From an uncultured Chloroflexia bacterium (GTDB lineage: Bacteria > Chloroflexota > Limnocylindria > Limnocylindrales > CSP1-4), in contig CAVRGP010000011.1 of NCBI GenBank assembly GCA_963720755.1, positions 704,001 through 768,000 on the forward strand: a stretch of DNA of 64,000 nt, given 5' to 3'. Under the pieces are notes generated by a model, which saw only the letters and a program-made list of their open reading frames with translations, had not been told where the DNA came from and did no database searches. Shown piece after piece: positions 19,568 through 34,673 of the stretch. The position numbers and the translations under genes are program-made. Each line of letters begins with the position of its first letter. The first letter of the stretch is position 1.

Positions 19568-21256
19568 TCAGCCCGGGTTGGAGGCGACGCCGCGCTCGCC
19601 TGGTGGCGTCGGTGGGCTCTCGGCCGCACGCGATCTCGTCCGCTTTCGGCGACTGGACTCGAGTTCGACCATCCCCCCCGCGCCATCTGCGAGGGTCCCG
19701 CTCGAGACGTTCGGGACCGGCGCCTTTGGCGATCGGCGGCCGACCATGGTCTTGGGCGGGTCGGTGATGGCCAGGACGGTCGGGTCGGGGCTGGGTGCCC
19801 GATCCGCGTACAGGTCGCAGAAGAGCACGACGAGTTCGGGATCGAACTGGGTGCCGGCGTGCTCGCGCAGCTCGGCGATCGCAGCGTCGTGGCCGATGGC
19901 GCGCTGGTACGGCCGGTCGCGAGTCATCGCATCGTAGGCATCGGCGATGGCCACGATCCTTGCGCCCAGCGGGATCTCGTTCGCACGGAGGCCGTAGGGA
20001 TAGCCATGTCCGGCGAATCGTTCGTGATGGTGGAGGATGATCGGGACCGCGTCGCGGAGGGCGGACGCATGCTCCAGGATCACCTGCCCGATCCGCGGAT
20101 GCTGGATGACGGTCCGCCATTCCGTCTGGGTGAGTGGCGCCGGCTTGTCAAGGATCTCCTCGGACACAGCGACCTTGCCGACATCGTGGAGGAGCGCGGC
20201 AAGGCGGATGCGGTCCACCTCCGCGTCGGGCAGCTGCAGGCGTCGGGCCATGTCCACCACGATCGAGGCGATCAAGGCGGATGGCTGGCCGCGATAGTGG
20301 GGGAGCGGTGCGATGAACGAGGTCAGCATGTCCGTGGCCGCATCGCGCGCCCGGCGACCGATGTCCGCGGCCCGGGCACGGCCGGCTTCGGAGATCGGCG
20401 CCCTCGGCACGCGAGCGTCCTCGTCGGGCTCTTCGAAGATATAGGTCTGATTGCGGCCCAGCGCCTTCGCCGAGTACATCGCGGCGTCCGCGTCGCGGAT
20501 GAGCGCGTCCAGGCGGACTTGCGAGCCTGTCCCACCGGCGATCCCGATCGAGATGGTGACGGACAGGTTCGGGTTGCCCTCGACCTTGAACTGGAGGCCC
20601 TCCACGATCGTCCGGAGTTTCTCGCTGAGGACTGCCCCATCCTCGACGTCGGTCTCGGTCAGGATGAGCATGAATTCCTCGCCGCCGTAGCGGCCGATCA
20701 TGTCACTCGCCCGCAGATTCTGGGACAGCGACTGAGCGACGCCCCGGAGGACGATGTCTCCGGCGGCATGACCATACGAGTCGTTGACGACCTTGAACAT
20801 GTCGATGTCCACGAACGCGACACACAACGGACGTCCGTATCGGGCCGCCCGCTCGACCTCGGAGAAGAGCTCGGCCAGCAATGCATGACGGTTCGGGATG
20901 CCGGTCAACCGGTCGACCGTGGCTCGGGTGTGGCTGTCCGCCAGCGATGCCGAGATCTCGTTGATGGCCCGGCCAAGGCGTGCCTCGAGTCCGCCGCCCG
21001 TGGTCGGCACCGTGACCGTGTAGTCGCCTCCGGCGATGCGTTCGGCCGCCCGGATCAGGCGGCCGTACCGGATACGACCGATCAGCCAGAAGATGACGGC
21101 ACTGACGCTGACCGCCATCGCGACGGCCATGACCGAGGCCGCGAACGGGCGATCGGCCGGAGCGACGAACGGCGCCGCAGCATCGGGCGACCCCACGAAG
21201 AGGATCCCCACCGCCGCCGGCACGGTGACGGCAAGAAGTGCGAGCAGTCGTATCAC
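19568..21256 (-). CDS. Membrane HAMP-GGDEF-HD-GYP diguanylate cyclase/phosphodiesterase
   Basis: Two N-terminal hydrophobic segments, HAMP-like linker, DRLTG..NR, DID.FK.VNDSYGH, RxxD + GGEEF, HDVGK, HHER..G.GYP, ADAYDAM. Confidence 0.92.
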   Translation of the reverse strand: MIRLLALLAVTVPAAVGILFVGSPDAAAPFVAPADRPFAASVMAVAMAVSVSAVIFWLIGRIRYGRLIRAAERIAGGDYTVTVPTTGGGLEARLGRAINEISASLADSHTRATVDRLTGIPNRHALLAELFSEVERAARYGRPLCVAFVDIDMFKVVNDSYGHAAGDIVLRGVAQSLSQNLRASDMIGRYGGEEFMLILTETDVEDGAVLSEKLRTIVEGLQFKVEGNPNLSVTISIGIAGGTGSQVRLDALIRDADAAMYSAKALGRNQTYIFEEPDEDARVPRAPISEAGRARAADIGRRARDAATDMLTSFIAPLPHYRGQPSALIASIVVDMARRLQLPDAEVDRIRLAALLHDVGKVAVSEEILDKPAPLTQTEWRTVIQHPRIGQVILEHASALRDAVPIILHHHERFAGHGYPYGLRANEIPLGARIVAIADAYDAMTRDRPYQRAIGHDAAIAELREHAGTQFDPELVVLFCDLYADRAPSPDPTVLAITDPPKTMVGRRSPKAPVPNVSSGTLADGAGGMVELESSRRKRTRSRAAESPPTPPGERGVASNPG

Positions 21257-21377
21257 CGCCTCAGGCTACGTGCCAACGGGCGCGTGGCGGACCGACCGGA
21301 CGTACCGCGGCGAGGCCTCCGGAAGTACGGTGGTGCCCGAACGTCCCACCGGCGGGCCGGTCGGGCAGGTGGCGTCC

Positions 21378-21386
21378 TGCTATACT
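21378..21386 (+). promoter_or_regulatory. Extended -10 promoter of the pur operon
   Basis: TGcTATACT, about 220 nt upstream of the purA ATG. Confidence 0.65.
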
Positions 21387-21442
21387 CCCGCCGTCCTCGA
21401 ATCGTGCGGATACGACGCCGCGAACCAGGAGGTCAGCGATCG

Positions 21443-21484
21443 CGCTTTCATGGCGCATCGGCCGTCCCGTGAGGCGCCCGAGCG
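21443..21484 (+). promoter_or_regulatory. Putative PyrR-type RNA binding loop in the pur leader
   Basis: CGUC-CCGUGA-GGCG (21463-21476) resembles the PyrR consensus ARUCCNGNGAGGYU and caps a longer stem; CUUUCA upstream resembles CUUUAA. Confidence 0.5.
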
Positions 21485-21542
21485 ACCGATCGATGGCGAT
21501 CCGCCGATACGTCGGCGGCGCGACGCGGGAGAGGTCTATCCG

Positions 21543-21577
21543 GGTCCCGGGCCGATCGCCCAGGGGCCTTTTCGTTT
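21543..21577 (+). terminator. Intrinsic terminator (attenuator) upstream of purA
   Basis: GGUCCCGGGC-cgauc-GCCC(A)GGGGCC followed by UUUUCGUUU, ending 28 nt before the ATG. Confidence 0.7.
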
Positions 21578-21605
21578 GCCCGATCGCCAGCCGAGGGTCT
21601 CGCTG

Positions 21606-22913
21606 ATGCCGGCCACCGTCATCGTCGGGTTGCAGTGGGGCGACGAGGGCAAGGGCAAGACCACCGACTTCCTCGCCGAGCAGGTGAGCATGGTCGTCCG
21701 GTACCAGGGTGGCGACAACGCCGGTCACACCGTGGTCAGCGGGGACGAGGTCTTCAAGTTGCGGCTCACCCCATCCGGTGTGTTGTACCCGCACATCACG
21801 TCGGTGATCGGCAACGGGGTCGTCGTGAACCCGATCACCCTGATCGCCGAGCTGGACATGCTGACATCGCGAGGGATCGACGTCTCGCGGGTCAGGGTCA
21901 GCCGGAGCGCGCACGTGATCATGCCGTACCACGTCGCGCTCGACCAGGCGAACGAGGCCCGACTTGGCGGCGCCAAGGTGGGTACCACCGGGCGGGGCAT
22001 CGGCCCGACCTACGGTGACCGGGCCTGGCGGATCGGTTTGCGCATGGAGGACCTCCTCGATGCCGAGCTCCTGCGAGAACGGATCGAGCGGGTCCTGATC
22101 GACAAGAACGTCCTGCTCGCGGCCGGCGGCTTACCGGCATTCGAGGTCGAACCACTGGTGGAGACCGCCCTGGGGTGGGGTGCGCGCCTGCATGCCCACC
22201 TCGACGATACGACCTGGCTCGTGCAGACCGCACTGGCCCGCGGCGAGCACGTCCTTCTCGAAGGTGCCCAGGGCACGCTCCTCGATATCGACCACGGCAG
22301 TTACCCGTTCGTCACGTCATCGAACCCGGTGGCGGGTGGAGCCTGCACCGGCGGCGGGATCGGTCCTCTCCAGGTCGACGAGGTCATCGGCGTGATGAAG
22401 GCCTATTCGACCCGGGTCGGATCCGGCCCGTACCCGACCGAGCTGACCGACGAGGTGGGCGCCGGCATCGCCGAACGCGGGCACGAATTCGGGACGGTGA
22501 CTGGCCGCCCGCGCCGGGTCGGCTGGTTCGATGCGGTGCCCCTGCGCTACGCGGTGGCGGTCAACAGCGCGAGCAGCATCATGCTCAACAAGCTGGACAT
22601 CCTGTCGGGTATCGAAACGATCCGGCTCTGTGTCGCCTACGAACTCGATGGCCAGCGGGTCGAGACCTGGCCCTCGAGCGGCGCTGCCCTGTCGCGGGCG
22701 ACGCCGATCTACGAGTTGTTCGAGGGATGGGACGAACCCATCCACGACATCCGGTCGGTGGCGGAGCTGCCTGACAACGCGCGCCGCTATGTGTCCGCGC
22801 TCGAGGAGCATGCGGGCGTACCCATCGTGCTCGTCTCGGTCGGCCCTGAGCGGACGCAGACCATCGACCGAGCCTGGCGACCGATACGAAACCGGTCGGC
22901 GCTTCAGGCATGA
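21606..22913 (+). CDS. purA: Adenylosuccinate synthetase
   Basis: GLQWGDEGKGK, RYQGGDNAGHT, GTTGRGIGPTY, LEGAQG, EFGTVTGRPRRVGWFD. Confidence 0.97.
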   Translation: MPATVIVGLQWGDEGKGKTTDFLAEQVSMVVRYQGGDNAGHTVVSGDEVFKLRLTPSGVLYPHITSVIGNGVVVNPITLIAELDMLTSRGIDVSRVRVSRSAHVIMPYHVALDQANEARLGGAKVGTTGRGIGPTYGDRAWRIGLRMEDLLDAELLRERIERVLIDKNVLLAAGGLPAFEVEPLVETALGWGARLHAHLDDTTWLVQTALARGEHVLLEGAQGTLLDIDHGSYPFVTSSNPVAGGACTGGGIGPLQVDEVIGVMKAYSTRVGSGPYPTELTDEVGAGIAERGHEFGTVTGRPRRVGWFDAVPLRYAVAVNSASSIMLNKLDILSGIETIRLCVAYELDGQRVETWPSSGAALSRATPIYELFEGWDEPIHDIRSVAELPDNARRYVSALEEHAGVPIVLVSVGPERTQTIDRAWRPIRNRSALQA

Positions 22914-24244
22914 CGGTCGACGCACCACGCCGGATCCTGGTCGTGGGCGGTCGCGGGCGCGAGCATGCCATCACCTGGAAGCTCGCCGCAGAACCGGGCG
23001 TGGACACGGTCCTGGTGGCGCCGGGAAGTGCGGCCATCGCGGCGGAGCCCCGTGTGGAGACGGTCGACGTGCCGGCGACCTCGATCGACGCGATCGTCGA
23101 ACTGGCGGATGCACGAAGGATAGAGCTGGTCGTGGTCGGGCCCGAGGCGCCGCTCGCTGCCGGGCTGGCCGATCGGCTCGAGGCAGCGGGGATCGCGGTC
23201 TTCGGCGCCAGCAGCGCGGCATCGGCGATCGAATGGTCGAAGGCCTTCTGCCACGACGTCGCCGCATCTGCCGGGGTGCGAATGGCCGAAGCGCAGGTGT
23301 GTCGATCGCGCGCGGCCGCCGAACAGGCCATCGATCGACTGCGCAGTCCCGACGGCGGGTTCGTCGTGAAGGACGACGGGCTGGCGGACGGGAAGGGCGT
23401 CACGGTCTTCGGGCCGGGCGCGACCCCGGAGGCACACCTGCCCCGGCTGCTTGACGACTTGTATGGCGCGACGAGTCGTGAGCGCACGATCGTCGTCGAG
23501 GAGCGGCTCCACGGCCTGGAGGCCAGCGTGATCGCCGTGTGCGATGGCGTGCGAGCGATCGCCCTGCCCGCTGCCCGGGACCACAAACGCCTCGGCGACG
23601 GCGACCGAGGCCCGAATACCGGTGGCATGGGTGCGTATTCACCCTTGCCGGACCTCGACGACGCGGGCGTCGACCGGGTCCTGGCCGACGTCCACGAGCC
23701 GGTCCTGCGCGAACTGGCGGCCCGTGGCACGCCGTTCCGGGGGTTCCTGTACGCCGGTCTCATCCTGACCGCGACTGGCCCCGTCCTGCTGGAGTGCAAC
23801 GCCAGACTGGGCGACCCGGAGGCGCAGGTCATCCTGCCGCGGGTCGACCTGGCCCTGGGCCCGATCCTGCTCGCCGCCGCACGGGGAGCGTTGCCGCCCG
23901 GTCTCGCCACACGTCTTCCGGTCCTGCCGGAGGCCGCTGTGGGGATCGTCATGGCGGCCGGTCGCTATCCGGCCGGATCGAGTGTCGGCGTGCCGATCGC
24001 CGGGATCGAAGCCGTCCGACGTCGCGGGTCGCTGGTCTTCCATGCCGGAACGATCCGAACCGCGGATGGATGGGCGACGAATGGCGGTCGGATCCTGACC
24101 GTCGTGGGTCGGGGTCCCGACCTCGACGCAGCGCGGGCGAACGCGGAGGATGCAGCCGACCTGATCACGTTCGAGGACAGCCAGCGTCGGCACGACATCG
24201 GCCGATCCACGGCCCCGGTCGAGTCGTCGGCGGTGGTCCGATGA
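22910..24244 (+). CDS. purD: Phosphoribosylamine-glycine ligase
   Basis: GGRGREHA, VVGPEAPL, DHKRLGDGDRGPNTGGMGAY, NARLGDPE. Confidence 0.95.
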   Translation: MTVDAPRRILVVGGRGREHAITWKLAAEPGVDTVLVAPGSAAIAAEPRVETVDVPATSIDAIVELADARRIELVVVGPEAPLAAGLADRLEAAGIAVFGASSAASAIEWSKAFCHDVAASAGVRMAEAQVCRSRAAAEQAIDRLRSPDGGFVVKDDGLADGKGVTVFGPGATPEAHLPRLLDDLYGATSRERTIVVEERLHGLEASVIAVCDGVRAIALPAARDHKRLGDGDRGPNTGGMGAYSPLPDLDDAGVDRVLADVHEPVLRELAARGTPFRGFLYAGLILTATGPVLLECNARLGDPEAQVILPRVDLALGPILLAAARGALPPGLATRLPVLPEAAVGIVMAAGRYPAGSSVGVPIAGIEAVRRRGSLVFHAGTIRTADGWATNGGRILTVVGRGPDLDAARANAEDAADLITFEDSQRRHDIGRSTAPVESSAVVR

Positions 24245-25602
24245 TCCCGCGCTACACGCTTCCCGAGATGGGCGCGATCTGGTCGGACACCGCCCGGTTC
24301 GAGGCGATGCTGCGAGTCGAACTGGCAGTCGCACGTGCCCAGACCGCCCGTGGGCAGATCCCGCCGGACGCGCTCAAGGCCCTCGAACAGCGAGCCCAGG
24401 TCGATGTCGGTCGGATCAGCGAGATCGAGCGGACGACCGACCACGATGTGATCGCCTTCGTGAGCCAGGTGGCGGAACGCGTCGGACCCGAGGGGCGGTT
24501 CCTCCACCTCGGCCTGACCAGCAGCGACGTCGTCGATACCGGCCTGGCGCTCCAGCTCCGCGCGGCCGGCGAGCACCTCCTGACCGACGCGGATCGACTG
24601 ACGACCGTCCTCGTCGGGCGCGCCAGGGCCGAGGCCGGGACCGTCATGATGGGTCGCACCCATTCCGTCCACGCGGAGCCGACGACGCTCGGCCTGAAGC
24701 TCGCAGGCTGGGCGTTCGAGCTTGAACGGGGACGCGACCGGCTGAGCGCCGCCGTGGACGAGATCGGGACCGGCAAGATCTCCGGACCCGTCGGCACGTA
24801 CAGCCACCTGGATCCAGACCTGGAAGCGGAGGTGCTCGCGGCACTCGGCCTGCACGTGGACCCGGTGAGCACCCAGATCGTCCAACGTGACCGACACGCG
24901 GCCCTGCTGACCGCCATCGCGATCATCGGTGGCTCGCTCGAACGGTTCGCCACCGAGATCCGCAACCTGCAGCACACCGAGATCGGCGAGTTGCGCGAGC
25001 CATTCCGCGCCGGCCAGAAGGGTTCATCGGCGATGCCGCACAAGCGGAACCCGATCGTGTCGGAGCGGATCGCGGGACTGGCCCGCCTGCTGCGCGGCTA
25101 TGCCCAGACGGCCCTCGAGGACCAGCCCCTCTGGCACGAACGCGATATCAGCCATTCGAGCGCCGAACGAGTCATCCTCCCGGATGCGACGATCGTGCTC
25201 GATTACATGCTGGTCCGGATGGCCGGACTGATCGAGGGTATGGAGGTCCATGCCGACCGGATGCGCGAGAACATCGACCGCGGTCTCGGCCTCCACGCGT
25301 CGTCGCACGTGCTCGTCGCGTTGGTCGATATCGGCGGCCTGTCGAGGGAGGATGCCTATGCGATCGTCCAGCGGGCTGCACTCCGGGCGGCCGATGAGCG
25401 CTTGCCGCTGCGCGACCTGCTGGCGGTCGATGCGGGCGTCGCTCAGCGCCTGTCGCTCAGTCAGCTCGATGCATGCTTCGACGACGCGGCTTTCCTGGGC
25501 CACGTCCCCGACGTGATCGGTCGGCTGGATGCCATCGCTGCGCGCCAGGCCGCCCGGTCGATCGGTGGGCAGGTGGAGGTGGCCGGTGTCCATGGCATCT
25601 GA
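24241..25602 (+). CDS. purB: Adenylosuccinate lyase
   Basis: MIPRY...MGAIW, H.GLTSSDV, GRTH, QKGSSAMPHKRNP, HERDISHSSAER. Confidence 0.97.
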   Translation: MIPRYTLPEMGAIWSDTARFEAMLRVELAVARAQTARGQIPPDALKALEQRAQVDVGRISEIERTTDHDVIAFVSQVAERVGPEGRFLHLGLTSSDVVDTGLALQLRAAGEHLLTDADRLTTVLVGRARAEAGTVMMGRTHSVHAEPTTLGLKLAGWAFELERGRDRLSAAVDEIGTGKISGPVGTYSHLDPDLEAEVLAALGLHVDPVSTQIVQRDRHAALLTAIAIIGGSLERFATEIRNLQHTEIGELREPFRAGQKGSSAMPHKRNPIVSERIAGLARLLRGYAQTALEDQPLWHERDISHSSAERVILPDATIVLDYMLVRMAGLIEGMEVHADRMRENIDRGLGLHASSHVLVALVDIGGLSREDAYAIVQRAALRAADERLPLRDLLAVDAGVAQRLSLSQLDACFDDAAFLGHVPDVIGRLDAIAARQAARSIGGQVEVAGVHGI

Positions 25603-26488
25603 GTTGCACCACGTGCGCTCCGGGAAGGTCCGGGACCTGTACGACCTGCCCGACGGTCGTCTGATGCTCGTGGCTTCCGACCGCATGTCCGCGTTCGACG
25701 TCGTGTTGCCGACCGCGATCCCGGACAAGGGCCGAGTCCTGACCGGGTTGTCGCGCCACTGGTTCGCGCGAACCCGACAGATCGTGCCGAACCACCTGCT
25801 GGGAACGACCGTGGACCCAGGCCTTGATCCCGACGGCGAGCTCCGGGGCCGGGTCATGCTCTGTCGGCCGGCCGAGGTCGTGCCGATCGAGGCGGTCGCC
25901 CGCGGCTACCTCGCGGGCTCGGGCTGGAAGGCGTACCGCGACGGCGGAGCCATCTGCGGGGTCGAACTCCCGCCCGGGCTTGCCGAGAGCGACCGGCTGT
26001 CACGCCCGATCTTCACGCCGGCGATCAAGGCCGAGGCCGGTGCGCACGACGAGAATGTCACCTTCGATGCAATGGTCGATCTCGTCGGCGGCGACCTTGC
26101 CGAACGCATCCGCGCGATCACCCTCACGCTCTACGACGTGGCCGCGACCGTCACGTCGGCGGTCGGGATCTTGCTGGCCGACACGAAGTTCGAATTCGGG
26201 ATCGTGCCCACTACGGGTGAGCTCATCCTCATCGACGAGGTCCTGACACCCAATTCCTCGCGTTTCTGGGATGCTTCGACCTACGAGCCCGGTCGGGCCC
26301 AGGCGAGTTACGACAAGCAGTTCGTGCGCGACTGGCTGGAGACCCAGCCGTGGGCCAAGGTGGCCCCCGGACCGGCTCTGCCCGACGACGTCGTGGCGGG
26401 GACCCGGGCGCGCTACATCGAGGCGTTCGAGCGGATCACCGGCGCGAGCTTCGCACGCTACCTCCAGGAGGATGTCATCGCCTCATGA
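25592..26488 (+). CDS. purC: SAICAR synthetase
   Basis: SGKVRDLY, SDRMSAFD, LADTKFEFG, DEVLTP.SSRFW, SYDKQFVRDWL. Confidence 0.96.
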   Translation: MASELHHVRSGKVRDLYDLPDGRLMLVASDRMSAFDVVLPTAIPDKGRVLTGLSRHWFARTRQIVPNHLLGTTVDPGLDPDGELRGRVMLCRPAEVVPIEAVARGYLAGSGWKAYRDGGAICGVELPPGLAESDRLSRPIFTPAIKAEAGAHDENVTFDAMVDLVGGDLAERIRAITLTLYDVAATVTSAVGILLADTKFEFGIVPTTGELILIDEVLTPNSSRFWDASTYEPGRAQASYDKQFVRDWLETQPWAKVAPGPALPDDVVAGTRARYIEAFERITGASFARYLQEDVIAS

Positions 26489-26775
26489 CCAGCTTCCGGT
26501 TCGCGGTCAATGTCACCCCGAAGCCCGGCATCCTCGACCCCGCAGGCCGCGCCGTCGAGGGCAGTCTCAACCACCTCGGCATCACTGGCGTCCACGACGT
26601 GAGGATCGGCCGGCGCGCCGAGTTGACGGTCGACGCCGTCGACGAGACGGCAGCGCGGGCCGTGGTCGACCGGCTCGCCACCGACCTGCTGTCGAACCCG
26701 CTCATCGAGGCCTTCGAGGTGGAGTCGGTGGCCGCGGCCTCGTCGCTCCACAGCGACCGGGTCGGGGAGGGCTGA
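26485..26775 (+). CDS. purS: FGAM synthase subunit PurS
   Basis: V..KPGILDP.GRAV, VRIGR, LLSNPLIE. Confidence 0.92.
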   Translation: MTSFRFAVNVTPKPGILDPAGRAVEGSLNHLGITGVHDVRIGRRAELTVDAVDETAARAVVDRLATDLLSNPLIEAFEVESVAAASSLHSDRVGEG

Positions 26776-26777
26776 GC

Positions 26778-27521
26778 GTGGCCGTGCGGATCGGTGTGGT
26801 CGTCTTTCCCGGCAGTAACTGCGATCGCGACACCATCCGGGCGCTCGACCTCGCCGGAGCTGAACCCGTGGTCCTGTGGCATGAACACGCATCCCTCGAA
26901 GGCGTGGCGGCGGTCGTCCTGCCCGGCGGCTTCGCCTACGGCGACTACGTGCGGGCCGGCGTGATCGCGCAATTCAGCCCGGTGATGCGGTCGGTGACAG
27001 CCTTTGCGGCCGATGGCGGCCTGGTCCTGGGGATCTGCAACGGCTTCCAGGTCCTGGCGGAGGCCGGACTGGTCCCAGGAGCATTGCTTCGCAACGAGTC
27101 GCTGCGGTTCGCCGGGCGGAGCGTCACGATCGCCCCCGACCGGGTCGACACGCGGTTCACCCATGCCCTGGAAGCCGGCCGCGGCCTTCGGATGCCGGTC
27201 GCCCACGGTGAAGGTCGGTTCTATGCCGACGGCCCGACGATCGATGCGCTCGAGCGCGACGGTCAGGTGCTGTTTCGGTACGTCGATCCCGTTGACTCGG
27301 CGTCTGCCACGGACGGGCCAGCCAACCCGAACGGCTCTGTGCGAGCGATCGCCGGGGTGATGAATGCGGCCGGGAACGTGGCGGGCCTGATGCCGCACCC
27401 GGAGCGGGCGTCCGAGGCGATCCTCGGGTCGGACGATGGGTTCGGGATCATCCGGTCGCTCGTCGAGAGCGCAGCCCAGGTGGCCCACGGGTCGGACGTC
27501 GTCGGGGCGGCTCGTTCATGA
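26778..27521 (+). CDS. purQ: FGAM synthase glutaminase subunit
   Basis: [44 protein letters not shown]. Confidence 0.96.
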
Positions 27522-29809
27522 GCGTCGCCGCGGCCTCGACCGAACCGCTCCATCGCCGGCTCGGCGTCACCGACGACGAGCTGGAGGCGATCAGGTCGCG
27601 CCTTGGAGGGCGAGAGCCGAACGATCTTGAACTGGCGATGTTCAGCGTGATGTGGAGCGAGCACTGCTCGTACAAGAGCTCGAAGCCGCTGCTCCGGACG
27701 CTCCCGATCGCGGGCGAGGGCGTCGTCGCCGGTCCGGGTGAGAATGCCGGGGTCATCTCGATCGGTGACGGCCTGGCGGTCGCCTTCAAGATCGAGTCGC
27801 ACAACCATCCATCGGCGGTCGAGCCGTACCAGGGTGCGGCGACCGGCGTGGGCGGGATCCTGCGCGACATCTTCACGATGGGCGCCCGGCCGATCGCGGT
27901 GCTCGACGCCTTGCGGTTCGGTGACCCCGCGGACTTGCGGACGCGCCACCTCGTGGACGGGATCGTGCGCGGCGTCGGCGGCTACGGCAACTGCGTGGGC
28001 GTCCCCACCGTGGGTGGCGAGCTCGTGTTCGATCCGGGCTACCAGGGCAACCCGCTGGTCAACGTCATGGCCATCGGCCTGCTCGAGGAGCGCCGGTTGA
28101 CGCTCGCGTCGGCCCCGGGACCGGGCAACCTCGTCGTCCTGTTCGGGTCCGCGACCGGTCGCGATGGGATCGGTGGGGCATCGGTGCTGGCCAGTGCCAC
28201 GTTCACCGACGACGACCCGTCGAAGCGGCCGTCCGTCCAGGTCGGGGACCCGTTCGCGGAGAAGCTCCTCATCGAGGCGAGCCTGGAACTCATCGACCGA
28301 GGCCTGGTCGAGGGCCTCCAGGATCTCGGTGCCGGTGGGATCACCTGTGCGACGTCGGAGACGGCGGATCGGGCTGGGACGGGGATCCTGGTCGACCTGG
28401 ACGCCATCCCGCGTCGCGAGCCGGGTCTTGAACCCTTCGAGGTCATGATCTCCGAGTCGCAGGAACGGATGTGCGCGGCGGTCCTGCCGGAACACTGGGC
28501 GGCGGTGCAGGAGGTCTGCCAGCGCTGGGGTCTGCCCGTCGCGGTCATCGGCCGGGTGACCGACGACGGCGACATCGCCATCGTCGAAGCAGATCGGGAG
28601 ATCGCCCGTGTCCCCGCCCGAGCCCTGACCAGTGACGCCATCGTCCACGACCGCCTCGCCCTCGCTCCGACCCATCGACGGGAAGCGCCGGCCCCGGGTG
28701 CTCCGGCCACCGTCAGCGACCGACTACCGGAGCGCGGCACGGATCCCGGTGCCGTCCTGCTGGCCCTGCTCGGCTCCGCCAACCTGTCGTCGCGTCATCA
28801 GGTCTTCCAGCAATACGACTCGACCGTCGGGGCCGACACCGTCGTCGGGCCTGGTCGCGGCGCGGCCGTCCTTCGGGTGCCCGGGACGCCGAAGGCCCTC
28901 GTCGCGACGACGGACGGCGATCATGCGGTCGGCCGGCTCGATCCATGGCTTGGCGCCGCCCTGGCGGTCGCCGAGGCGACTCGGAACGTCTCGATCACGG
29001 GCGCCCGGCCGCTCGGCGTGACGAATTGCCTGAACTACGGGGATCCAACCCGGCCAGAGGCGTTCTGGCAACTTCAGGAGGGGGTTCGAGGCCTCGCAGA
29101 CGCCTGTCTCGCCCTCGGATTGCCGGTCACCGGCGGGAACGTTTCGCTCTACAACGAGTCGCCGACGACCGCCATCGCGCCGACACCCGAGATCGGGGTC
29201 GTGGGTCTCCTCGACGACGTCAGCACCCTGGTCGGCCCGGCGTTCGTGGCCGCCGGCGATGCGATCGTCCTCGTGGGCGAGGTCGGGCCCGGACTGGCTG
29301 GGTCGGCGTATGCGGGATTGGCCGGCGGATCGGTGGACGATGCACCGCCGAATCTTGACCTTGACCGCGAGGTGGCCATCCAGGCGTTCGTGCGCGAGGC
29401 CATCGCTCGCGGGTTGGTCGCGTCGGCCCAGGACATCTCCGGCGGCGGTTTCGGGGTGGCGCTCGCGGAGGGTGCGATCTGGAGCGGTCTCGGGGCCTCG
29501 GTCCGCCTGCCGATCATCCACTCGCCGGCGGTGGACCTGTTCGGGGAGAGCCCGTCACGGCTCATCGTGTCGTGTCGCCCGCGGTATGTCGCGGCGCTCG
29601 AGCTCCTCGCGCGCCACCATGGACTCCCGGTCGAAGCCATCGGCACGGTCGGCGGCGATCGCCTCGTCGTCGAGCTGACGATGGCCGGAGCGACCGGCGC
29701 GGCGGAAGAGCGCGGTGGCCGGGTCGCCGACGCGCTGGAGGTCGCGGTCAAGGACCTCGCCCATGTCTGGGAGCACGGGCTGGCCCGCGCGCTCGGCTGG
29801 GAGGGCTGA
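27518..29809 (+). CDS. purL: FGAM synthase large subunit (small-form PurL)
   Basis: [45 protein letters not shown]. Confidence 0.97.
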
Positions 29810-29812
29810 CCG

Positions 29813-31264
29813 ATGTGCGGCGTGTTCGGGGTCGTCCTGCCGAACGGTGAACCGACAGAGGCCGCGTCCCTCGCCGCCCTGGGCCTGTTCGCGCTGCAGC
29901 ACCGCGGCCAGGAGTCGGCCGGGCTTGCGGTCAGCGACGGCGATCAGTTGATGCTCTACAAGGACCTCGGGATGATCAGCTCCGTCCTCGATGAGCGTCG
30001 GCTGCCGAGCCTCCGGGGTCAGATCGCGATCGCTCATTGCCGCTATTCCACGACCGGCTCGACGGTCTGGGAGAACGCGCAGCCGACCTATCGGTTGGGA
30101 CCACGGCGAGCCCTGGCGATCGGACACAACGGGAACCTGGTGAACACCCGGGAACTGCTCGACCAGCTCACCGGGGGCCGGGCGCGCCTGCCCGCGTCGA
30201 CGGACACGGAACTGCTGACCGCCCTCCTCGCCGACGAACCGGCGGCCGACACCGTCGAAGCGCTGACGCGCGTCCTTCCTCGGGTCCGCGGCGCATACAG
30301 CCTGGTGGTGCTCGACGAACGACGGGTCATCGGGGTTCGCGATCCGTTCGGGTTCCGTCCACTCGTCTTGGGCCGATTGCCGGCGTCGGGCACATCGGAC
30401 GACGGATTGTGGCTGGGCGATGACGCGTCGGTCGGCTGGTGCCTGTCGTCAGAGACCGCGGCGCTCGACATCATCGGGGCCGACTACGTCCGCGACGTCC
30501 AACCGGGCGAGATGATCATCCTTGAGGCGGGTCAAGCTCCACGCTCCGTCCGGTTCGCCACCGCGACGCCGGCATTGTGCGTGTTCGAGCTCATCTATTT
30601 CGCCCGACCCGACTCCTACATGGAGGGCCGAAACCTGTACGAGGCCCGGCGCCTGATGGGGATGCAGCTTGCCGCCGAGCATCCCGTCGACGCGGACCTC
30701 GTCATGCCGGTGCCCGACACGGGGGCCCCGGCCGCGGCAGGCTTTGCGGAAGCGTCCGGCCAGCCCTACCGCGAGGGGATGTACCGCAACCGGTATGCGG
30801 GACGAACCTTCATCCAACCATCCGCCGGACTGCGCCATCGCGGGGTCACGATCAAGCTCAACCCGCTCCGCGAGGTCGTCAGCGGCAAGCGCCTGATCGT
30901 CGTGGACGATTCGATCGTTCGCGGGACGACGACGAAGCGGATCGTCGAACTCCTGCGCCGGGCCGGTGCGACCGAGGTCCACGTTCGGATCAGCGCTCCG
31001 CCCATCTTCCATCCATGTTTCTACGGGATCGATACCCAGATCGAGACCGAGCTCATCGCGTCGACCCATACCGAGCCTGAGATCCAGGCCTTCATCGGCG
31101 CCGATTCGTTGGGCTACCTGTCGATCCGCGGCGTGCTCGCTGCGCTCGACCTGCCCTACGAGCGCTTCTGTTTCGCCTGTTTCGACGGCCACTATCCGGA
31201 GCCCGTTCCGTATGACGCGGCCAGCCGGAAATTCATGCTCGAGGAGGCGGTGGTCGGTCGATGA
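29813..31264 (+). CDS. purF: Amidophosphoribosyltransferase (Fe-S type)
   Basis: N-terminal MCG, LQHRGQE, RYSTTG, CVFE.IYFARPDS, VDDSIVRGTT, CFYG, CFAC. Confidence 0.97.
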   Translation: MCGVFGVVLPNGEPTEAASLAALGLFALQHRGQESAGLAVSDGDQLMLYKDLGMISSVLDERRLPSLRGQIAIAHCRYSTTGSTVWENAQPTYRLGPRRALAIGHNGNLVNTRELLDQLTGGRARLPASTDTELLTALLADEPAADTVEALTRVLPRVRGAYSLVVLDERRVIGVRDPFGFRPLVLGRLPASGTSDDGLWLGDDASVGWCLSSETAALDIIGADYVRDVQPGEMIILEAGQAPRSVRFATATPALCVFELIYFARPDSYMEGRNLYEARRLMGMQLAAEHPVDADLVMPVPDTGAPAAAGFAEASGQPYREGMYRNRYAGRTFIQPSAGLRHRGVTIKLNPLREVVSGKRLIVVDDSIVRGTTTKRIVELLRRAGATEVHVRISAPPIFHPCFYGIDTQIETELIASTHTEPEIQAFIGADSLGYLSIRGVLAALDLPYERFCFACFDGHYPEPVPYDAASRKFMLEEAVVGR

Positions 31265-32421
31265 CCCGGTCGGGCGCCAAGGGCGCGGCCGGACGCGATC
31301 GATACCGTGCTGCCGGGGTCGACGTCGCTGCCGGGGAACGGGCGGTCGACCTGATGCGGGCGCACGTCGAGTCGACCCGCCGCCCCGAAGTGGTCGGCGG
31401 CCTTGGCGGCTTTGGGGGCGCGTTCACGATCCCCGCGGGGTATCGCGTGCCGCTGCTCGTGGCATCGACCGACGGCGTCGGGACGAAGACCGCGATCGCC
31501 GCGTCGCTTGCGCAATTCGACACGATCGGGATCGATCTCGTGGCGATGTGCGCGGACGACGTCGTGTGCTGCGGGGCGGAGCCGCTCGCGTTCCTCGATT
31601 ATGTCGCGGTGGGTCGGGTGACGCCGGAATGGGTCGCCGGTCTCGTCGATGGGGTCGCCGCCGGTTGCCGGGCGGCCGGCTGCGCACTCGTGGGCGGCGA
31701 AACGGCCGAACATCCTGACCTGATGGCGCCCGAAGCCTATGACCTGTCCGGATGTTGTATCGGCGTGGTCGAGCGCGACGACGTGATCGATGGACGGACC
31801 GTCGGAGCGGGCGACGCCATCGTCGGTCTCGCGGCATCGGGACTGCACGCCAACGGCTACTCGCTCGTCCGTGCGCTGATCGCGAGCTGGGACCTGGACC
31901 TGACCGAGCCGTACCAGGAGCGGTTGCGTCGGTCGCTGGGCGACGCTGCAGCTGACCGGGCGCTCGCCGACGCCCCGGCCGAGGCGATGGCGACGCTCGG
32001 CGACGTCCTTCTCACCCCGACCAGGATCTACGCCCGAGCCGTCCTGGCGGCGCGCGCCGCGGTTCGGGCGAGCGGCTCCGACATCCGTGGCCTGGCCCAT
32101 ATCACGGGCGGAGGCCTGCCCGGTAACGTGCCTCGCGCGCTGCCGGATGGCCTGGCCGCGCGACTCGACCCGGATCGCTGGCTGATGCCGTCGATCATGC
32201 GCCTGTTCGGTGCCCTGGGTGGACTTGACGATGTCGAGATCCGGGCGACATTCAATGGCGGGATCGGGATGGTCGCGATCCTGCCGTCGACGGCGGTTGC
32301 GACGGCCGTCGATGCGTTCTCGACGTTCGGGATCGATGCGAACGTGGTCGGCGAGGTCGTCGAGAGCGGCAGCGTCGGTGGTCACCGGTACGTCGAGGGA
32401 CCACTCGACGGATACGCATGA
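31261..32421 (+). CDS. purM: AIR synthetase
   Basis: YRAAGVD, STDGVGTK, GGETAEHP, SGLHANG, AHITGGG, TFNGGIG. Confidence 0.97.
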   Translation: MTRSGAKGAAGRDRYRAAGVDVAAGERAVDLMRAHVESTRRPEVVGGLGGFGGAFTIPAGYRVPLLVASTDGVGTKTAIAASLAQFDTIGIDLVAMCADDVVCCGAEPLAFLDYVAVGRVTPEWVAGLVDGVAAGCRAAGCALVGGETAEHPDLMAPEAYDLSGCCIGVVERDDVIDGRTVGAGDAIVGLAASGLHANGYSLVRALIASWDLDLTEPYQERLRRSLGDAAADRALADAPAEAMATLGDVLLTPTRIYARAVLAARAAVRASGSDIRGLAHITGGGLPGNVPRALPDGLAARLDPDRWLMPSIMRLFGALGGLDDVEIRATFNGGIGMVAILPSTAVATAVDAFSTFGIDANVVGEVVESGSVGGHRYVEGPLDGYA

Positions 32422-34673
32422 TCGATCAGGCGAGCCGATCCGGCGGGGTCGCCGTCGGGGTATCCGGGTCAGGCTCCAACCTCCGGGCACTCGTCGCGGC
32501 GGCAGATCGCGGCGAACTCGGGGGCGAGATCGTGATGGTCTTCGGCGACCGGGCGTGCCCCGCGCTCGACTGGGCAGCCGAGCGCGGGATCGAGACCGCG
32601 CTGGTGCCGCTGGGGGATGACACGATCGTGGCCGAGACCCTCGGCGCCGTCCGCCCCGACGTCGTCGCCCTGGCTGGCTACATGCGGATCGTCGGCCCGG
32701 CCGTGCTGGCGGCGTTCGCGGGCCGCATCGTCAATACTCACCCGTCGCTCCTGCCGGCCTTCCCGGGCGCGCATGCGGTCGCGGATGCCATCTCGCACGG
32801 CGTCGCGGTGACCGGTTGCACGGTTCACTTCGTCGACGAATCGCTCGACGGCGGGCCGATCATCGCGCAGGAGGCGGTACCCATCCTGGCGGGGGACGAT
32901 GCCAGGACGCTTCACGAGCGGATCCGGGCGGTCGAACACCGCCTGTTGCCGCGAACCGTGAGTCTCCTGCTCGCCGGCGCGCTGAGCGTCGCGCCCGATG
33001 GCCGACAGGTCAGGCTCGATCTCGACCTGGCCGACCGATCCGTGCCTCGTCCGCGTCGTGCCCTGCTGTCGGTCTGGGACAAGACCGGGCTGGCCGACTT
33101 TGCCGGCGGCCTCGTTCGGGCGGGATTCGAACTCGTCTCGACCGGCGGGACCGCTGCGGCGCTGCGGGACTCGGGCCTGCCGGTGACCGAGGTCACGGCG
33201 GTGACCGGTTTCCCCGAGATGCTCGACGGTCGGGTCAAGACCCTCCACCCGAGGATCCATGGCGGCCTCCTCGCCGACCGACGATCGGCCGGCCATCGGC
33301 GCCAGGCGCTCGCGGCGGCCATCGCGCCGTTCGAGCTGGTGGTCTGCAACCTGTACCCATTCGCGGCCGCCGCCGAGCGCCCGGGGATCCTGCTCGACGA
33401 ACTGATCGAGGAGATCGACATCGGCGGGCCGTCGATGGTCCGGGCAGCCGCCAAGAACCATGCGAACGTAGCGGTCGTGACCGCACCCGAGCGGTATCCG
33501 GCGATCCTCCGGGCGATCGAGGAGGAGGGGAGCGTCGGGCCCGGCCTGCGTGCCGCGCTCGCGATCGATGCGTTCGCCTCGACCGCTGCCTATGACGCCC
33601 GGATCTCGACGGTGCTCCCCGGCCGGATGTCGGCCGCGGGCGTCGCCCTGCCGGACGAGCCGGGCTTGCCGGGTGCGTCCGACCCGTACCCGGCCACCCT
33701 GGCGATCGGACTCGAGAAGGTCGAGACGCTGCGATACGGCGAGAACCCGCACCAACCCGCCGCCCGATACCGGCGACCCGGTGCGACCGCGACGGACGGG
33801 CCGTTCGCGACCGGTGCGCCCATCCTGCAGGGCAAGGCGTTGTCGTACAACAACGTCCTGGACGCCTCGGCTGCGGTCGCGCTGGGTCGTGCCCTCCGGG
33901 GTCCCGGATGCATCATCGTCAAGCACATGAACCCGTGTGGGGCAGCGGAGCGGCCGACGATCATCGAGGCTTGGCAGGATGCTCTTGCCGGCGATCCGGT
34001 CTCGGCCTTCGGTGGCGTGGTCGCGCTGACCCGTCCGGTCGATGCCCAGCTGGCCGAGGCGCTGACGTCGATCTTCCTCGAAGTCGTCATCGCGCCCGCC
34101 TATGACGCGGCGGCCCTGCACGCGTTGGCCACCAAGGCCAACCTGCGGGTCGTGCTCGACCCCTTGCTGGGTGGTGACGCAGACGTTCCGGCACCGGGCC
34201 CGACGAGTTCGATCCGATCGGCTGGCGGCGCGGTCCTGGTGACCGCCTCGGATATCGGAGTCGATGATCCGGCGACGTGGGCGGTCGCCACGCGTCGTGT
34301 TCCAACGGATGCCGAATCGGTTGACCTGGACCTGGCCTGGCGGCTGGTCCGCGGTGTGACCTCGAATGCCATCGTGCTCGTACGGGACAGCCGGCTCATC
34401 GGCATGGGTTCCGGCCAGACGTCACGGGTCGATGCGGCGCGCGGCGCCGTGGACAAGGCTCGCGCGTTCGCCGGGGCCGGATCGCTCGCCGGGGCGGCCT
34501 GTGCCTCGGATGCGTTCTATCCGTTCCCCGATGCGGTCGAGGTCTGCCTGGCTGCCGGCGTGACGGCGTTCGTTCAACCAGGGGGCTCGATCCGTGATGC
34601 CGAATCGGTCGCTGCCGTGGATCGAGCCGGTGGGACGATGATGGTCACGGGCGTGCGTCATTTCCGTCATTGA
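32418..34673 (+). CDS. purN-purH: Fused GAR transformylase (PurN) + IMP cyclohydrolase/AICAR transformylase (PurH)
   Basis: N-terminal SGSGSNL, LAGYM, N.HPSLLP.FPG, LDGGPII; then ALLSV.DKTG, STGGTA, GRVKTLHP, IDIGGP, LRYGENPHQ, ASDAFYPF, RHFRH, all in one open frame. Confidence 0.95.
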   Translation: MIDQASRSGGVAVGVSGSGSNLRALVAAADRGELGGEIVMVFGDRACPALDWAAERGIETALVPLGDDTIVAETLGAVRPDVVALAGYMRIVGPAVLAAFAGRIVNTHPSLLPAFPGAHAVADAISHGVAVTGCTVHFVDESLDGGPIIAQEAVPILAGDDARTLHERIRAVEHRLLPRTVSLLLAGALSVAPDGRQVRLDLDLADRSVPRPRRALLSVWDKTGLADFAGGLVRAGFELVSTGGTAAALRDSGLPVTEVTAVTGFPEMLDGRVKTLHPRIHGGLLADRRSAGHRRQALAAAIAPFELVVCNLYPFAAAAERPGILLDELIEEIDIGGPSMVRAAAKNHANVAVVTAPERYPAILRAIEEEGSVGPGLRAALAIDAFASTAAYDARISTVLPGRMSAAGVALPDEPGLPGASDPYPATLAIGLEKVETLRYGENPHQPAARYRRPGATATDGPFATGAPILQGKALSYNNVLDASAAVALGRALRGPGCIIVKHMNPCGAAERPTIIEAWQDALAGDPVSAFGGVVALTRPVDAQLAEALTSIFLEVVIAPAYDAAALHALATKANLRVVLDPLLGGDADVPAPGPTSSIRSAGGAVLVTASDIGVDDPATWAVATRRVPTDAESVDLDLAWRLVRGVTSNAIVLVRDSRLIGMGSGQTSRVDAARGAVDKARAFAGAGSLAGAACASDAFYPFPDAVEVCLAAGVTAFVQPGGSIRDAESVAAVDRAGGTMMVTGVRHFRH

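Follow-up and report, generated by a model that had tools for sequence, protein, structure and literature searches.

The leader of the purine biosynthesis operon headed by purA was analysed in the window, i.e. the whole 64,000-nt stretch of DNA under study (positions 704,001 to 768,000 of contig CAVRGP010000011.1, uncultured Chloroflexia bacterium, GCA_963720755.1), and this leader is, in our assessment, very probably a translated-leader attenuator. It was found to contain an upstream open reading frame (uORF) of 55 codons (21439-21606, + strand), which extends from a putative AUC start codon (21439-21441) to a TGA stop codon (21604-21606) that shares its A with the ATG start codon of purA, and which passes, in a frame other than that of purA, through two hairpins (designated here as H2 and H3) and an intrinsic terminator. 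The initial annotation of this region had treated the leader as untranslated RNA, a reading that had to be abandoned, as a conserved uORF appears to be read through the hairpins and the terminator instead; with a leader that is not untranslated RNA, the mechanism changes. The leader varies widely in length between relatives, almost always in steps of three, indicative of selection on the reading frame.

In the loci of the same genus, the frame that ends on the purA start was shown to be open for at least 185 nt, with an invariant ATC at 21439 that is located 6 nt after an AGGAGG sequence. The stop codon of this frame overlaps the purA start in 29 of the 30 genus loci, mostly as TGATG, as TAGTG where the start codon is GTG, and once as TAATG. 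The distance from the ATC to the purA start equals 2 modulo 3 in 27 of 29 informative genus loci (the leader of locus L031 contains a run of N), the remaining two (L025 and L036) being 1 modulo 3. In L025, a 1-nt deletion is matched by a stop codon one base earlier (TGAC-ATG), leaving the open reading frame (ORF) intact, and the stop codon was likewise shifted in four other loci.

When species-representative genomes were scanned with the pattern, 114 loci were found, 80 of which were fetched and 78 analysed; of the 80 listed hits, 79 are labelled as Chloroflexota groups, chiefly Candidatus Limnocylindrales or uncultured Chloroflexia, and one as a Patescibacteria group. Among the 78 pattern-found species, the ATC-to-start distance was 2 modulo 3 in 65, the ATC-started ORF was found to end no more than 4 nt upstream of the purA start in 65, and an overlapping stop codon (TGATG, TAGTG or TAATG) was present in 72. 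These leaders represent 45 distinct ATC-to-start lengths (131-356 nt), and 34 of these lengths equal 2 modulo 3 (binomial p = 8e-9). Similarly, the distance from the AUC to a downstream CGGGAG sequence is a multiple of three in 93 of 98 cases (values 33, 63, 84, 87 and 90). Six sister-family genomes, with a short purA leader and without the leader described here, served as a control: a stop codon on the start codon was seen in none of them (0/6).

The exact leader pattern (at most three mismatches) was shown to be confined, among 401 genomes of the order, to two main genera (68/70 genomes of g1 and 29/37 of g7) with a few single hits elsewhere, the other genera carrying diverged versions of the leader design. 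These were compared in a family set of purA upstream regions from 94 genomes representing 39 genera, which comprised 29 loci of a purA search in 131 genomes (purA being found in 125 of them), 5 other loci and 60 regions picked by genus before viewing; about 30 genomes with a purA match lie outside this set, as does the unpublished genome G253, which counts as one genome in the order-wide pattern and purA tallies only and supports none of the claims made here. A strict CNGNGA hairpin within 300 nt of purA was identified in 73 of the 94 leaders (30 of 39 genera), these 73 hairpins having been found with a CNGNGA filter in a search that required a C-G closing pair (pair 1) and whose scoring preferred U at loop position 4 only among several candidates. 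The frame in which loop bases 3-5 form a codon (G-N-G) reaches its first stop codon between -6 and +15 relative to the purA start in 72 of the 73 leaders (at -2 in 46, +13 in 10, -4 in 9, -3 in 4, +1 in 2 and -6 in 1), compared with 5 of 73 for the other loop-open frame, and a stop codon at -4, -3 or -6 is accompanied by a hairpin in the corresponding frame. Of the 73 family leaders, 60 have a terminator between the hairpin and purA, and in 59 of 72 it lies inside the uORF; in genus g17, the terminator scan found none in six of seven leaders, though the hairpin, the uORF and the overlapping stop codon are kept.

The encoded peptide, in contrast to its translation, does not seem to be the target of selection. 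Column entropy was shown to be equal at codon positions 1, 2 and 3 (0.67, 0.70 and 0.68, respectively; 49 columns), the C-terminal half of the uORF cannot be aligned, and ORF length ranges from 43 to 108 codons. Moreover, changes in the hairpin stems, both among the pattern hits and in the family-wide set, are non-synonymous but preserve base pairing, indicative of RNA stems that covary while the peptide is not conserved.

Several observations count against the proposed attenuator. The frame rule is broken in 13 of the 78 pattern-found species (loci L058, L069, L080, L091-L093, L100, L102, L106, L108, L110, L115 and L104); 12 of these 13 come from one series of record titles (12/46 versus 1/32; Fisher p = 0.011), and it is suspected that the broken frames represent indel errors of the assemblies rather than biology. 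Furthermore, a second frame is stop-free in 50 of the 78 leaders, and open frames are common in G+C-rich DNA; since openness alone is therefore a weak argument, the case is built on length periodicity and on a frame-tracking stop codon. Of the 94 family leaders, 21 have no strict CNGNGA hairpin (9 of 39 genera), the putative initiation codon, AUC, is a poor one, and no combination of a Shine-Dalgarno (SD) sequence and a start codon was found with the criteria used in 31 of the 73 family leaders. The folding energy of the whole leader as a single sequence does not indicate excess stability (z = +0.42 versus shuffles), so that it is conservation, and not folding energy, that marks the leader as more than a chance sequence.

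Regarding the start of the uORF, the ATC at 21439 was kept in all true pattern hits, and the substitutions observed in CGATCGCGC affect its first two bases; from its invariance and its position behind an SD sequence, we infer that AUC at 21439 is the start codon. An in-frame candidate start preceded by an SD sequence (at 4-11 nt) was identified in 42 of the 73 family leaders, being AUC in 20, AUU in 10, UUG in 5, GUG in 4, AUG in 2 and CUG in 1. In genera g1, g3, g7, g15, g27, g29, g33 and g35, the AUC or AUU precedes the loop by 28 nt, and UUG, GUG and AUG candidates are found 10-52 nt before it (UUG at 22-25 nt in g17, AUG at 34 nt in some g3 members). Genera g17, g36 and g3 have a canonical UUG or AUG in the uORF frame, at a distance of 22-34 nt from the loop. 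Translation of PurA itself from the in-frame ATG at 21450, which the initial annotation had named as a finding that would speak against a regulatory leader, was checked and rejected, as this ATG is not conserved and stop codons in the purA frame occur between the AUC and the purA start in 28 of 78 relatives. The start region also includes an invariant palindrome, GCGAUCGC (21436-21444), for which the predicted fold places the AUC in a 4-nt loop (AGCG-AUCG-CGCU), and which may alternatively pair with the 3' strand of a further hairpin, H1 (CGCGA/UCGCG). In a leader of genus g5 (L224), the best SD-start pair (AAGGAG, 6 nt, UUG) opens another frame of 10 codons, for which the hexaloop itself provides the UGA stop, and the long frame leading to purA is open as well; the two uORFs of this leader may compete.

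The RNA elements within the uORF were delineated by per-segment folds and fixed-register pair counts, which were used instead of all-against-all mutual information on the MAFFT alignment, as the latter was too noisy owing to misalignment of the variable hairpins. Hairpin H2 (21452-21487, + strand) has the apex CGGCCGUC[CCGUGA]GGCGCCCG with the hexaloop at 21467-21472, so that CGUC[CCGUGA]GGCG (21463-21476) represents the top of a longer stem, which is interrupted by single bases only and does not include a purine-rich internal bulge. Across 69 distinct sequences, 13 of its 14 pairs are paired in at least 93%, and in the sister genus g7 the stem shows changes of G-C to A-U and to C-G that involve both sides. 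The CNGNGA loop was observed in 27 of 30 BLAST-found relatives for which no pattern had been imposed, and GA at loop positions 5-6 in 76 of 78. Within the family set, the loops are CCGUGA (63), CAGUGA (4), CUGUGA (4) and CGGUGA (2), borne on 43 distinct stems with compensatory changes; pair 1 is C-G in 73 of 73 (a search requirement), pair 2 is U-G in 40 and C-A in 22 (isosteric wobbles), C-G in 4 and U-A in 3, and pairs 4 and 5 alternate between C-G, G-C and U-A.

The intrinsic terminator (stem-loop 21542-21569, U-tract UUUUCGUUU at 21569-21577, + strand; -20.1 kcal/mol), which lies inside the uORF, was shown to be similarly robust, with 80 distinct versions reaching a mean z of -3.4 versus mononucleotide shuffles (97% below -1) and stem sequences that differ widely between species yet still pair. 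A simple terminator scan did not pick up the terminator at 21542-21577, likely because its stem is bulged. The initial annotation had listed a lack of conservation of the CNGNGA loop or the terminator in relatives as a finding that would refute its reading, and both proved to be conserved; its proposal that upstream segments pair alternatively with GGCCGAUCGCC was not confirmed, as GGCCGAUCGCC is the terminator loop of this genome only and is not conserved; more generally, a conserved alternative pairing with the terminator, as a classical antiterminator/terminator switch would require, was not found.

Hairpin H3 (CCGCCGA-UACG-UCGGCGG with outer GCG/CGC; 21496-21521, + strand, the UACG-capped part being 21501-21518) appears to be optional: it is kept with many unrelated stem sequences and is missing from several relatives (e.g. 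L026, L076, L087 and L106), its deletion in L026 and L027 comprising 24 nt, a multiple of three. Between H3 and the terminator, and just 5' of the latter, a purine-rich box, CGGGAGAGGUCUAUCC (21526-21541, + strand), was identified, with an invariant GGGA between flanks that are conserved to at least 90%; its role as an internal SD-like ribosome hold or a pause sensitive to nucleoside triphosphates (NTPs) is speculation. RNAalifold recovered H2 and H3 only, together with a 5' pairing that was rejected, as it uses bases of the -10 box. Two further candidate pairings were rejected: that of the SD flank GGUC(A)GC with GCGACC, for which one double change gives A-G there and U-G in an H2 base pair, and a pseudoknot between loop CCCG and CGGGAG, for which loop position 2 varies and CGGGAG does not show a compensating change.

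The 5' part of the leader encompasses the elements that would deliver ribosomes to the uORF. Its SD sequence, AGGAGG (21427-21432, + strand), precedes the AUC by 6-7 nt in the relatives listed, among which the variants AGGAGA, CGGAGG and GGGAGG occur. The sequence GUCCUCG (21393-21399, + strand) at the 5' end is a predicted anti-SD, of which CCUC (21395-21398) pairs with GAGG of the SD, and in the minimum-free-energy structure of 21393-21451 this pairing encloses H1; the segment is nearly invariant in the 20-sequence alignment, and the pairing does not display covariation, since both of its sides are invariant. Hairpin H1 (UGCGG...CCGCG; 21405-21422, + strand), the stem of which is kept while the loop varies in sequence and length, was predicted in nearly all of 67 distinct versions (mean z = -1.1), with the compensatory stem variants GCGGG/CCCGC, ACGGG/CCCGU and GCGGC/GCCGC and with inserts in the loop. 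At the other end of the leader, purA has a weak SD-like sequence of its own, GAGGG (21593-21597, + strand), within the 3' end of the uORF, and the relatives listed have G-rich SD-like runs 8-11 nt 5' of the purA start.

The apex of H2 links the purA leader to PyrR. As the initial annotation had suggested checking, the genome was searched for pyrR and encodes one PyrR (NF003549, 250.7 bits versus a cut-off of 138). The purA hairpin, which can be written as G-Y-C [CNGNGA] G-R-C, was found to be the same element as the tandem hairpins located before pyrR and carA: leaders of all three genes follow a common loop rule, in which C, G, G and A are fixed and N2 and N4 are free, and have in common the closing C-G pair and a Y-R second pair (U-G, C-A, C-G or U-A). 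The pyrR leader (G000:C13:29440-29500; L002:1425-1476) has a CCCUUC anti-SD at its 5' end and contains GGCC[CCGUGA]GGCC and GGCC[CAGUGA]GGCC directly before the SD sequence GGAAGGAG and the pyrR ATG, an arrangement that looks like direct translational autoregulation; both of its hairpins have CNGNGA loops in 24 of 24 genus genomes. In the carA leader (G000:C15:216349-216500; L161:175-301), two tandem GUC[CUGUGA]GGC hairpins are followed by the SD sequence GAAGGAGG and a 22-codon uORF with an ATG start, which crosses a terminator (CCCACCG...CGGTGGG, then TTCGTTTTG) and ends as GTGA on the GTG start codon of carA. All 22 of the 22 genus relatives keep the carA hairpins, and of the 17 amenable to analysis, 14 have the uORF design. 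In its loop and top pairs, the purA hairpin also matches the Bacillus subtilis PyrR binding loop consensus ARUCCAGAGAGGYU, as quoted in PMC7430163. The claim of a PyrR-type loop controlling the pur operon is thereby sustained as far as the hexaloop type is concerned, which matches that of the pyrR and carA hairpins, and is not supported in its other part, in that the antiterminator is not conserved and the translated uORF had been missed.

A number of findings weaken the case for PyrR. The Rfam PyrR model (RF00515) gave no hit in the leader (E up to 10) or in the whole genome (E up to 1), a silence that carries no weight at purA, since the model likewise misses the genome's own pyrR and carA leaders. 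A genome-wide excess of the 12-mer GTCCNGNGAGGC was not observed (14 hits versus 12 for the reversed control), and the motif is too short for hairpin descriptors to delimit a PyrR regulon across the genome. In favour of PyrR, the chance of the 12-mer occurring in a 220-nt stretch is ~1e-3 (10 forward hits in 3 Mb), and in the descriptor scans of this genome only pyrR, carA and purA have such hairpins in clear upstream non-coding positions. Also against PyrR, purA has one hairpin, located after the start codon, compared with two before the SD sequence at pyrR and carA, and the genes downstream of H2 belong to purine rather than pyrimidine synthesis, unlike the usual setting of a PyrR element. 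The purine-rich internal bulge and lower stem that PyrR binding requires in B. subtilis were not observed at H2, the hairpins of the local pyr leaders also being devoid of the bulge. Finally, a uridine-activated protein that represses purine synthesis has no obvious physiological logic.

According to the mechanism proposed here, the strong SD sequence (21427-21432) would load ribosomes onto the weak AUC start (21439), and a ribosome trailing RNA polymerase across 21542-21577 would block the terminator hairpin, allowing transcription to proceed into purA-D-B-C-Q-L-F-M-NH. This ribosome would end at the TGA (21604-21606) and restart on the overlapping purA ATG, and where the uORF is not translated, the terminator would form and the operon would be cut off. 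The likely control point is H2, the apex of which begins ~20 nt after the start codon, the PyrR-type hairpin starting 14-22 nt after it: PyrR on H2, at the mRNA entry side of the initiating ribosome, would block its start or advance, causing attenuation and loss of coupling and, hence, repression. In Bacillus, uridine nucleotides stimulate RNA binding by PyrR and guanine nucleotides counteract it (PMC7430163), and by analogy uridine nucleotides would favour PyrR binding to H2 and guanine nucleotides would oppose it. Plentiful guanine nucleotides would then raise purA, which represents the GTP-consuming step towards AMP; this would be less sensible for the de novo genes of the operon, and given this poor fit the sign and effector of control are left as proposals. 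We consider the chances to be even that the complete model, i.e. a ribosome-dependent attenuator with translational coupling and with PyrR on H2, is correct. The broader proposal that PyrR has been recruited family-wide to gate the purine operon by the ratio of uridine to guanine nucleotides through an AUC- or AUU-started uORF, with the same design at carA, is put forward tentatively, at somewhat less than even chances.

Two alternatives retain the translated uORF and dispense with PyrR. A pyrBI-like attenuator that operates without any protein, in which the polymerase slows at low purine NTPs, e.g. on CGGGAGAGG (21526-21534), so that the ribosome then masks the terminator, with H2 and H3 serving as pause or timing hairpins, is considered improbable. 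It has a precedent in pyrBI, which has the same architecture with the terminator inside the leader ORF (PMC4824070), would explain the invariant purine-rich box just 5' of the terminator, provides direct logic for a purine operon and does not need an antiterminator, none being conserved; yet a pause hairpin needs no fixed loop, and CNGNGA is maintained across 30 genera while the stems vary, G is present everywhere in a leader of 70% G+C, so that GTP-sensitive pausing would not be site-specific, and genus g17 keeps hairpin, uORF and overlapping stop codon where the scan found no terminator in six of seven leaders. It is also rather unlikely that the hexaloop is bound by another RNA-binding protein or by the ribosome instead of PyrR, the likeness between the leaders then reflecting a regulator other than PyrR that they have in common, or a structural preference. 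Such a binder would be compatible with a motif that is short and not rare in the genome, with the single site at purA, placed otherwise than in the pyr leaders, and with PyrR binding to H2 being deduced from sequence; against it stand the identical loop rule, closing C-G and Y-R second pair at purA, carA and pyrR, the fit of the loop to the PyrR consensus in PMC7430163, and the restriction of clear upstream non-coding hairpins in this genome to these three genes.

Readings in which translation is incidental or the peptide is the product fare worse. An undescribed metabolite riboswitch, with H2, H3 and the conserved box as an aptamer acting on the terminator and the open frame as a coincidence, would account for a long, conserved and structured leader with a terminator before biosynthetic genes, and for the invariant unpaired stretches GAGCGACC and CGGGAGA, which are otherwise unexplained. 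This reading is nevertheless judged very unlikely: Rfam did not return a match up to E = 10, H3 is dispensable, alternative pairing with the terminator is not conserved, loop position 2 varies without compensation in CGGGAG, excluding that pseudoknot, and neither the three-base length periodicity nor the frame-tracking stop codon can be explained by an untranslated RNA. In the Rfam searches, no family reached the gathering threshold in the window, none beyond noise (sR53, Xoo8) was found at E up to 10 in 21230-21680, and the leaders of 12 relatives gave no match at E up to 0.1; the statement of the initial annotation, made by eye, that the leader does not match the ZTP, ykkC/PRPP or guanine riboswitch consensus was thus borne out, the covariance models giving no hits for the purine, ZTP, PRPP/ykkC, xanthine, 2'-dG and THF classes. 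Extremely unlikely, in our view, is a uORF whose product, either a small basic protein with a function of its own or an arrest peptide, matters through its amino acid sequence. The frame is indeed conserved, and the variation of codons 7-13 (G-R-P-V-R-R-P) among genus members falls mostly on third positions; yet entropy is equal at the three codon positions overall, stem changes across genera are non-synonymous and base-pair-preserving, eight codons can be deleted together with H3, and the C-terminal part is unalignable at 43-108 codons.

The genome assembly comprises 3.0 Mb in 15 contigs. The operon purA-D-B-C-Q-L-F-M-NH (21606-34673, + strand, ~13 kb) was assigned using Pfam, its consecutive ORFs abutting or overlapping, and begins with purA (adenylosuccinate synthetase; 21606-22913, + strand; Pfam Adenylsucc_synt, E = 1e-169), in front of which a 350-nt gap contains all leader features. 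Together with a terminator that is kept in relatives, this supports the earlier view of a cis-regulatory leader heading the whole pur operon; the extended -10 sequence, the CCGUGA-capped hairpin, the UACG hairpin and the terminator with its U-tract were likewise all located where the initial annotation had placed them. The extended -10 sequence, TGCTATACT (21378-21386, + strand), is unchanged in 19 of 20 aligned relatives, one having TGG, and the transcript would start at about 21392-21394, ~7 nt further downstream; a promoter scan of the leader did not find a -35/-10 pair. Leader identity across the genus is 75-83%, beginning exactly at the -10 box, and in the 20-sequence alignment TGCTATACT, the SD sequence, CGATCGCGC, most of H2, GAGCGAC, GGGA and the T-run of the terminator were invariant or nearly so. 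With a 391-nt query, 34 of 36 genus genomes were matched at 72-92% identity and the sister family in the purA coding part only, and an nhmmer search of the leader against its own genome found a single copy. Assembled contigs of relatives that bridge leader and purA are present in RNA libraries of two studies, which represents weak evidence of read-through, as DNA carry-over is possible and contigs do not show transcript ends.

Among other features, a 751-aa ORF at the end of the operon (32418-34673) was shown to contain Formyl_trans_N (PurN-like), MGS and AICARFT/IMPCHase (PurH) domains and is an apparent PurN-PurH fusion. The PurQ-type amidotransferase domain of a 416-aa ORF (26271-27521) is confined to residues 172-383, and the N-terminal part of this ORF, which overlaps the purC ORF (25529-26488), may hide purS, or the true start may be located later. 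The divergent upstream neighbour (19568-21256, - strand) encodes a GGDEF diguanylate-cyclase domain fused to HD/HD_5, placing a cyclic-di-GMP enzyme beside the purine operon. An extra conserved insert of 110-170 nt, in the uORF frame, is present between the terminator and purA in a clade of relatives (L028, L030-L038 and many pattern-found loci); it contains a hairpin, GCGCACC...GGTGCGC, and may be a small dispersed repeat, as the present genome has two weak copies of the insert elsewhere (C2:62622-62705 and C11:501557-501658).

Limnocylindria are abundant uncultured bacteria of soils and lakes. To our knowledge, purine operon control outside Proteobacteria and Firmicutes is largely unknown, and we know of nothing reported for Limnocylindria; a literature search for PyrR together with purA did not reveal, in the titles and abstracts of the matches listed, a report of PyrR controlling purA, and one on riboswitches in Limnocylindria found nothing. 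If the proposed model is true, a pyrimidine regulator that binds RNA extends its control to the purine pathway, and a protein-gated attenuator that is executed by the ribosome ties purine synthesis to the ratio of uridine to guanine nucleotides. Regulation would then rely on a protein-binding hairpin set within a translated uORF, and not on an untranslated switch, and in many genera the regulatory ORF would start on AUC or AUU, a class of start codons that is ignored by gene callers. The comparative signature employed here, i.e. lengths that change in threes and a stop codon that tracks the frame onto the next start codon, may serve to recognise translated leaders that look non-coding.

The architecture appears to be new in its combination, joining a pyrBI-type ribosome-suppressed attenuator, a PyrR-type hairpin and stop-start coupling on a purine operon in at least 30 genera of one family. 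Its closest counterpart is the Escherichia coli pyrBI leader, in which, according to PMC4824070, the terminator is inside a translated leader gene and the ribosome suppresses termination: in both cases, a translated ORF runs through an intrinsic terminator ahead of nucleotide biosynthesis genes, with the ribosome as the antiterminator and without an antiterminator helix. The purA leader differs from pyrBI in that it precedes a purine operon, uses an AUC or AUU start in many genera, has a stop codon that overlaps the start of the structural gene and carries a conserved protein-type hairpin inside the ORF; sensing through NTP-dependent pausing belongs to pyrBI and is only an analogy here. With the Bacillus PyrR loop (RF00515), H2 shares CNGNGA closed by C-G and a U-G second pair. 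Compared with the Bacillus PyrR attenuators, however, the purA leader has a single hairpin after the start codon, within a uORF, and a purine target, and it has neither an anti-antiterminator/antiterminator pair, nor a purine-rich bulge, nor an Rfam match.

The leader-peptide attenuators of trp, his and leu operons are comparable in that a short translated leader controls a downstream terminator, whereas the purA uORF has no run of regulatory codons and no conserved 2:3 antiterminator and runs through the terminator itself. PyrR reportedly acts on translation in Mycobacterium smegmatis, in work attributed to Fields and Switzer from 2007. Within the same genome, the carA leader resembles that of purA in its related extended -10 sequence (TGCTACTCT here, TGCTACCCT in most relatives), 5' GUCCU anti-SD, CNGNGA hairpins, a uORF through the terminator and a stop codon overlapping the start of the structural gene, and it differs in having two hairpins upstream of the SD sequence, an ATG or GTG start and a uORF of only 21-32 codons.

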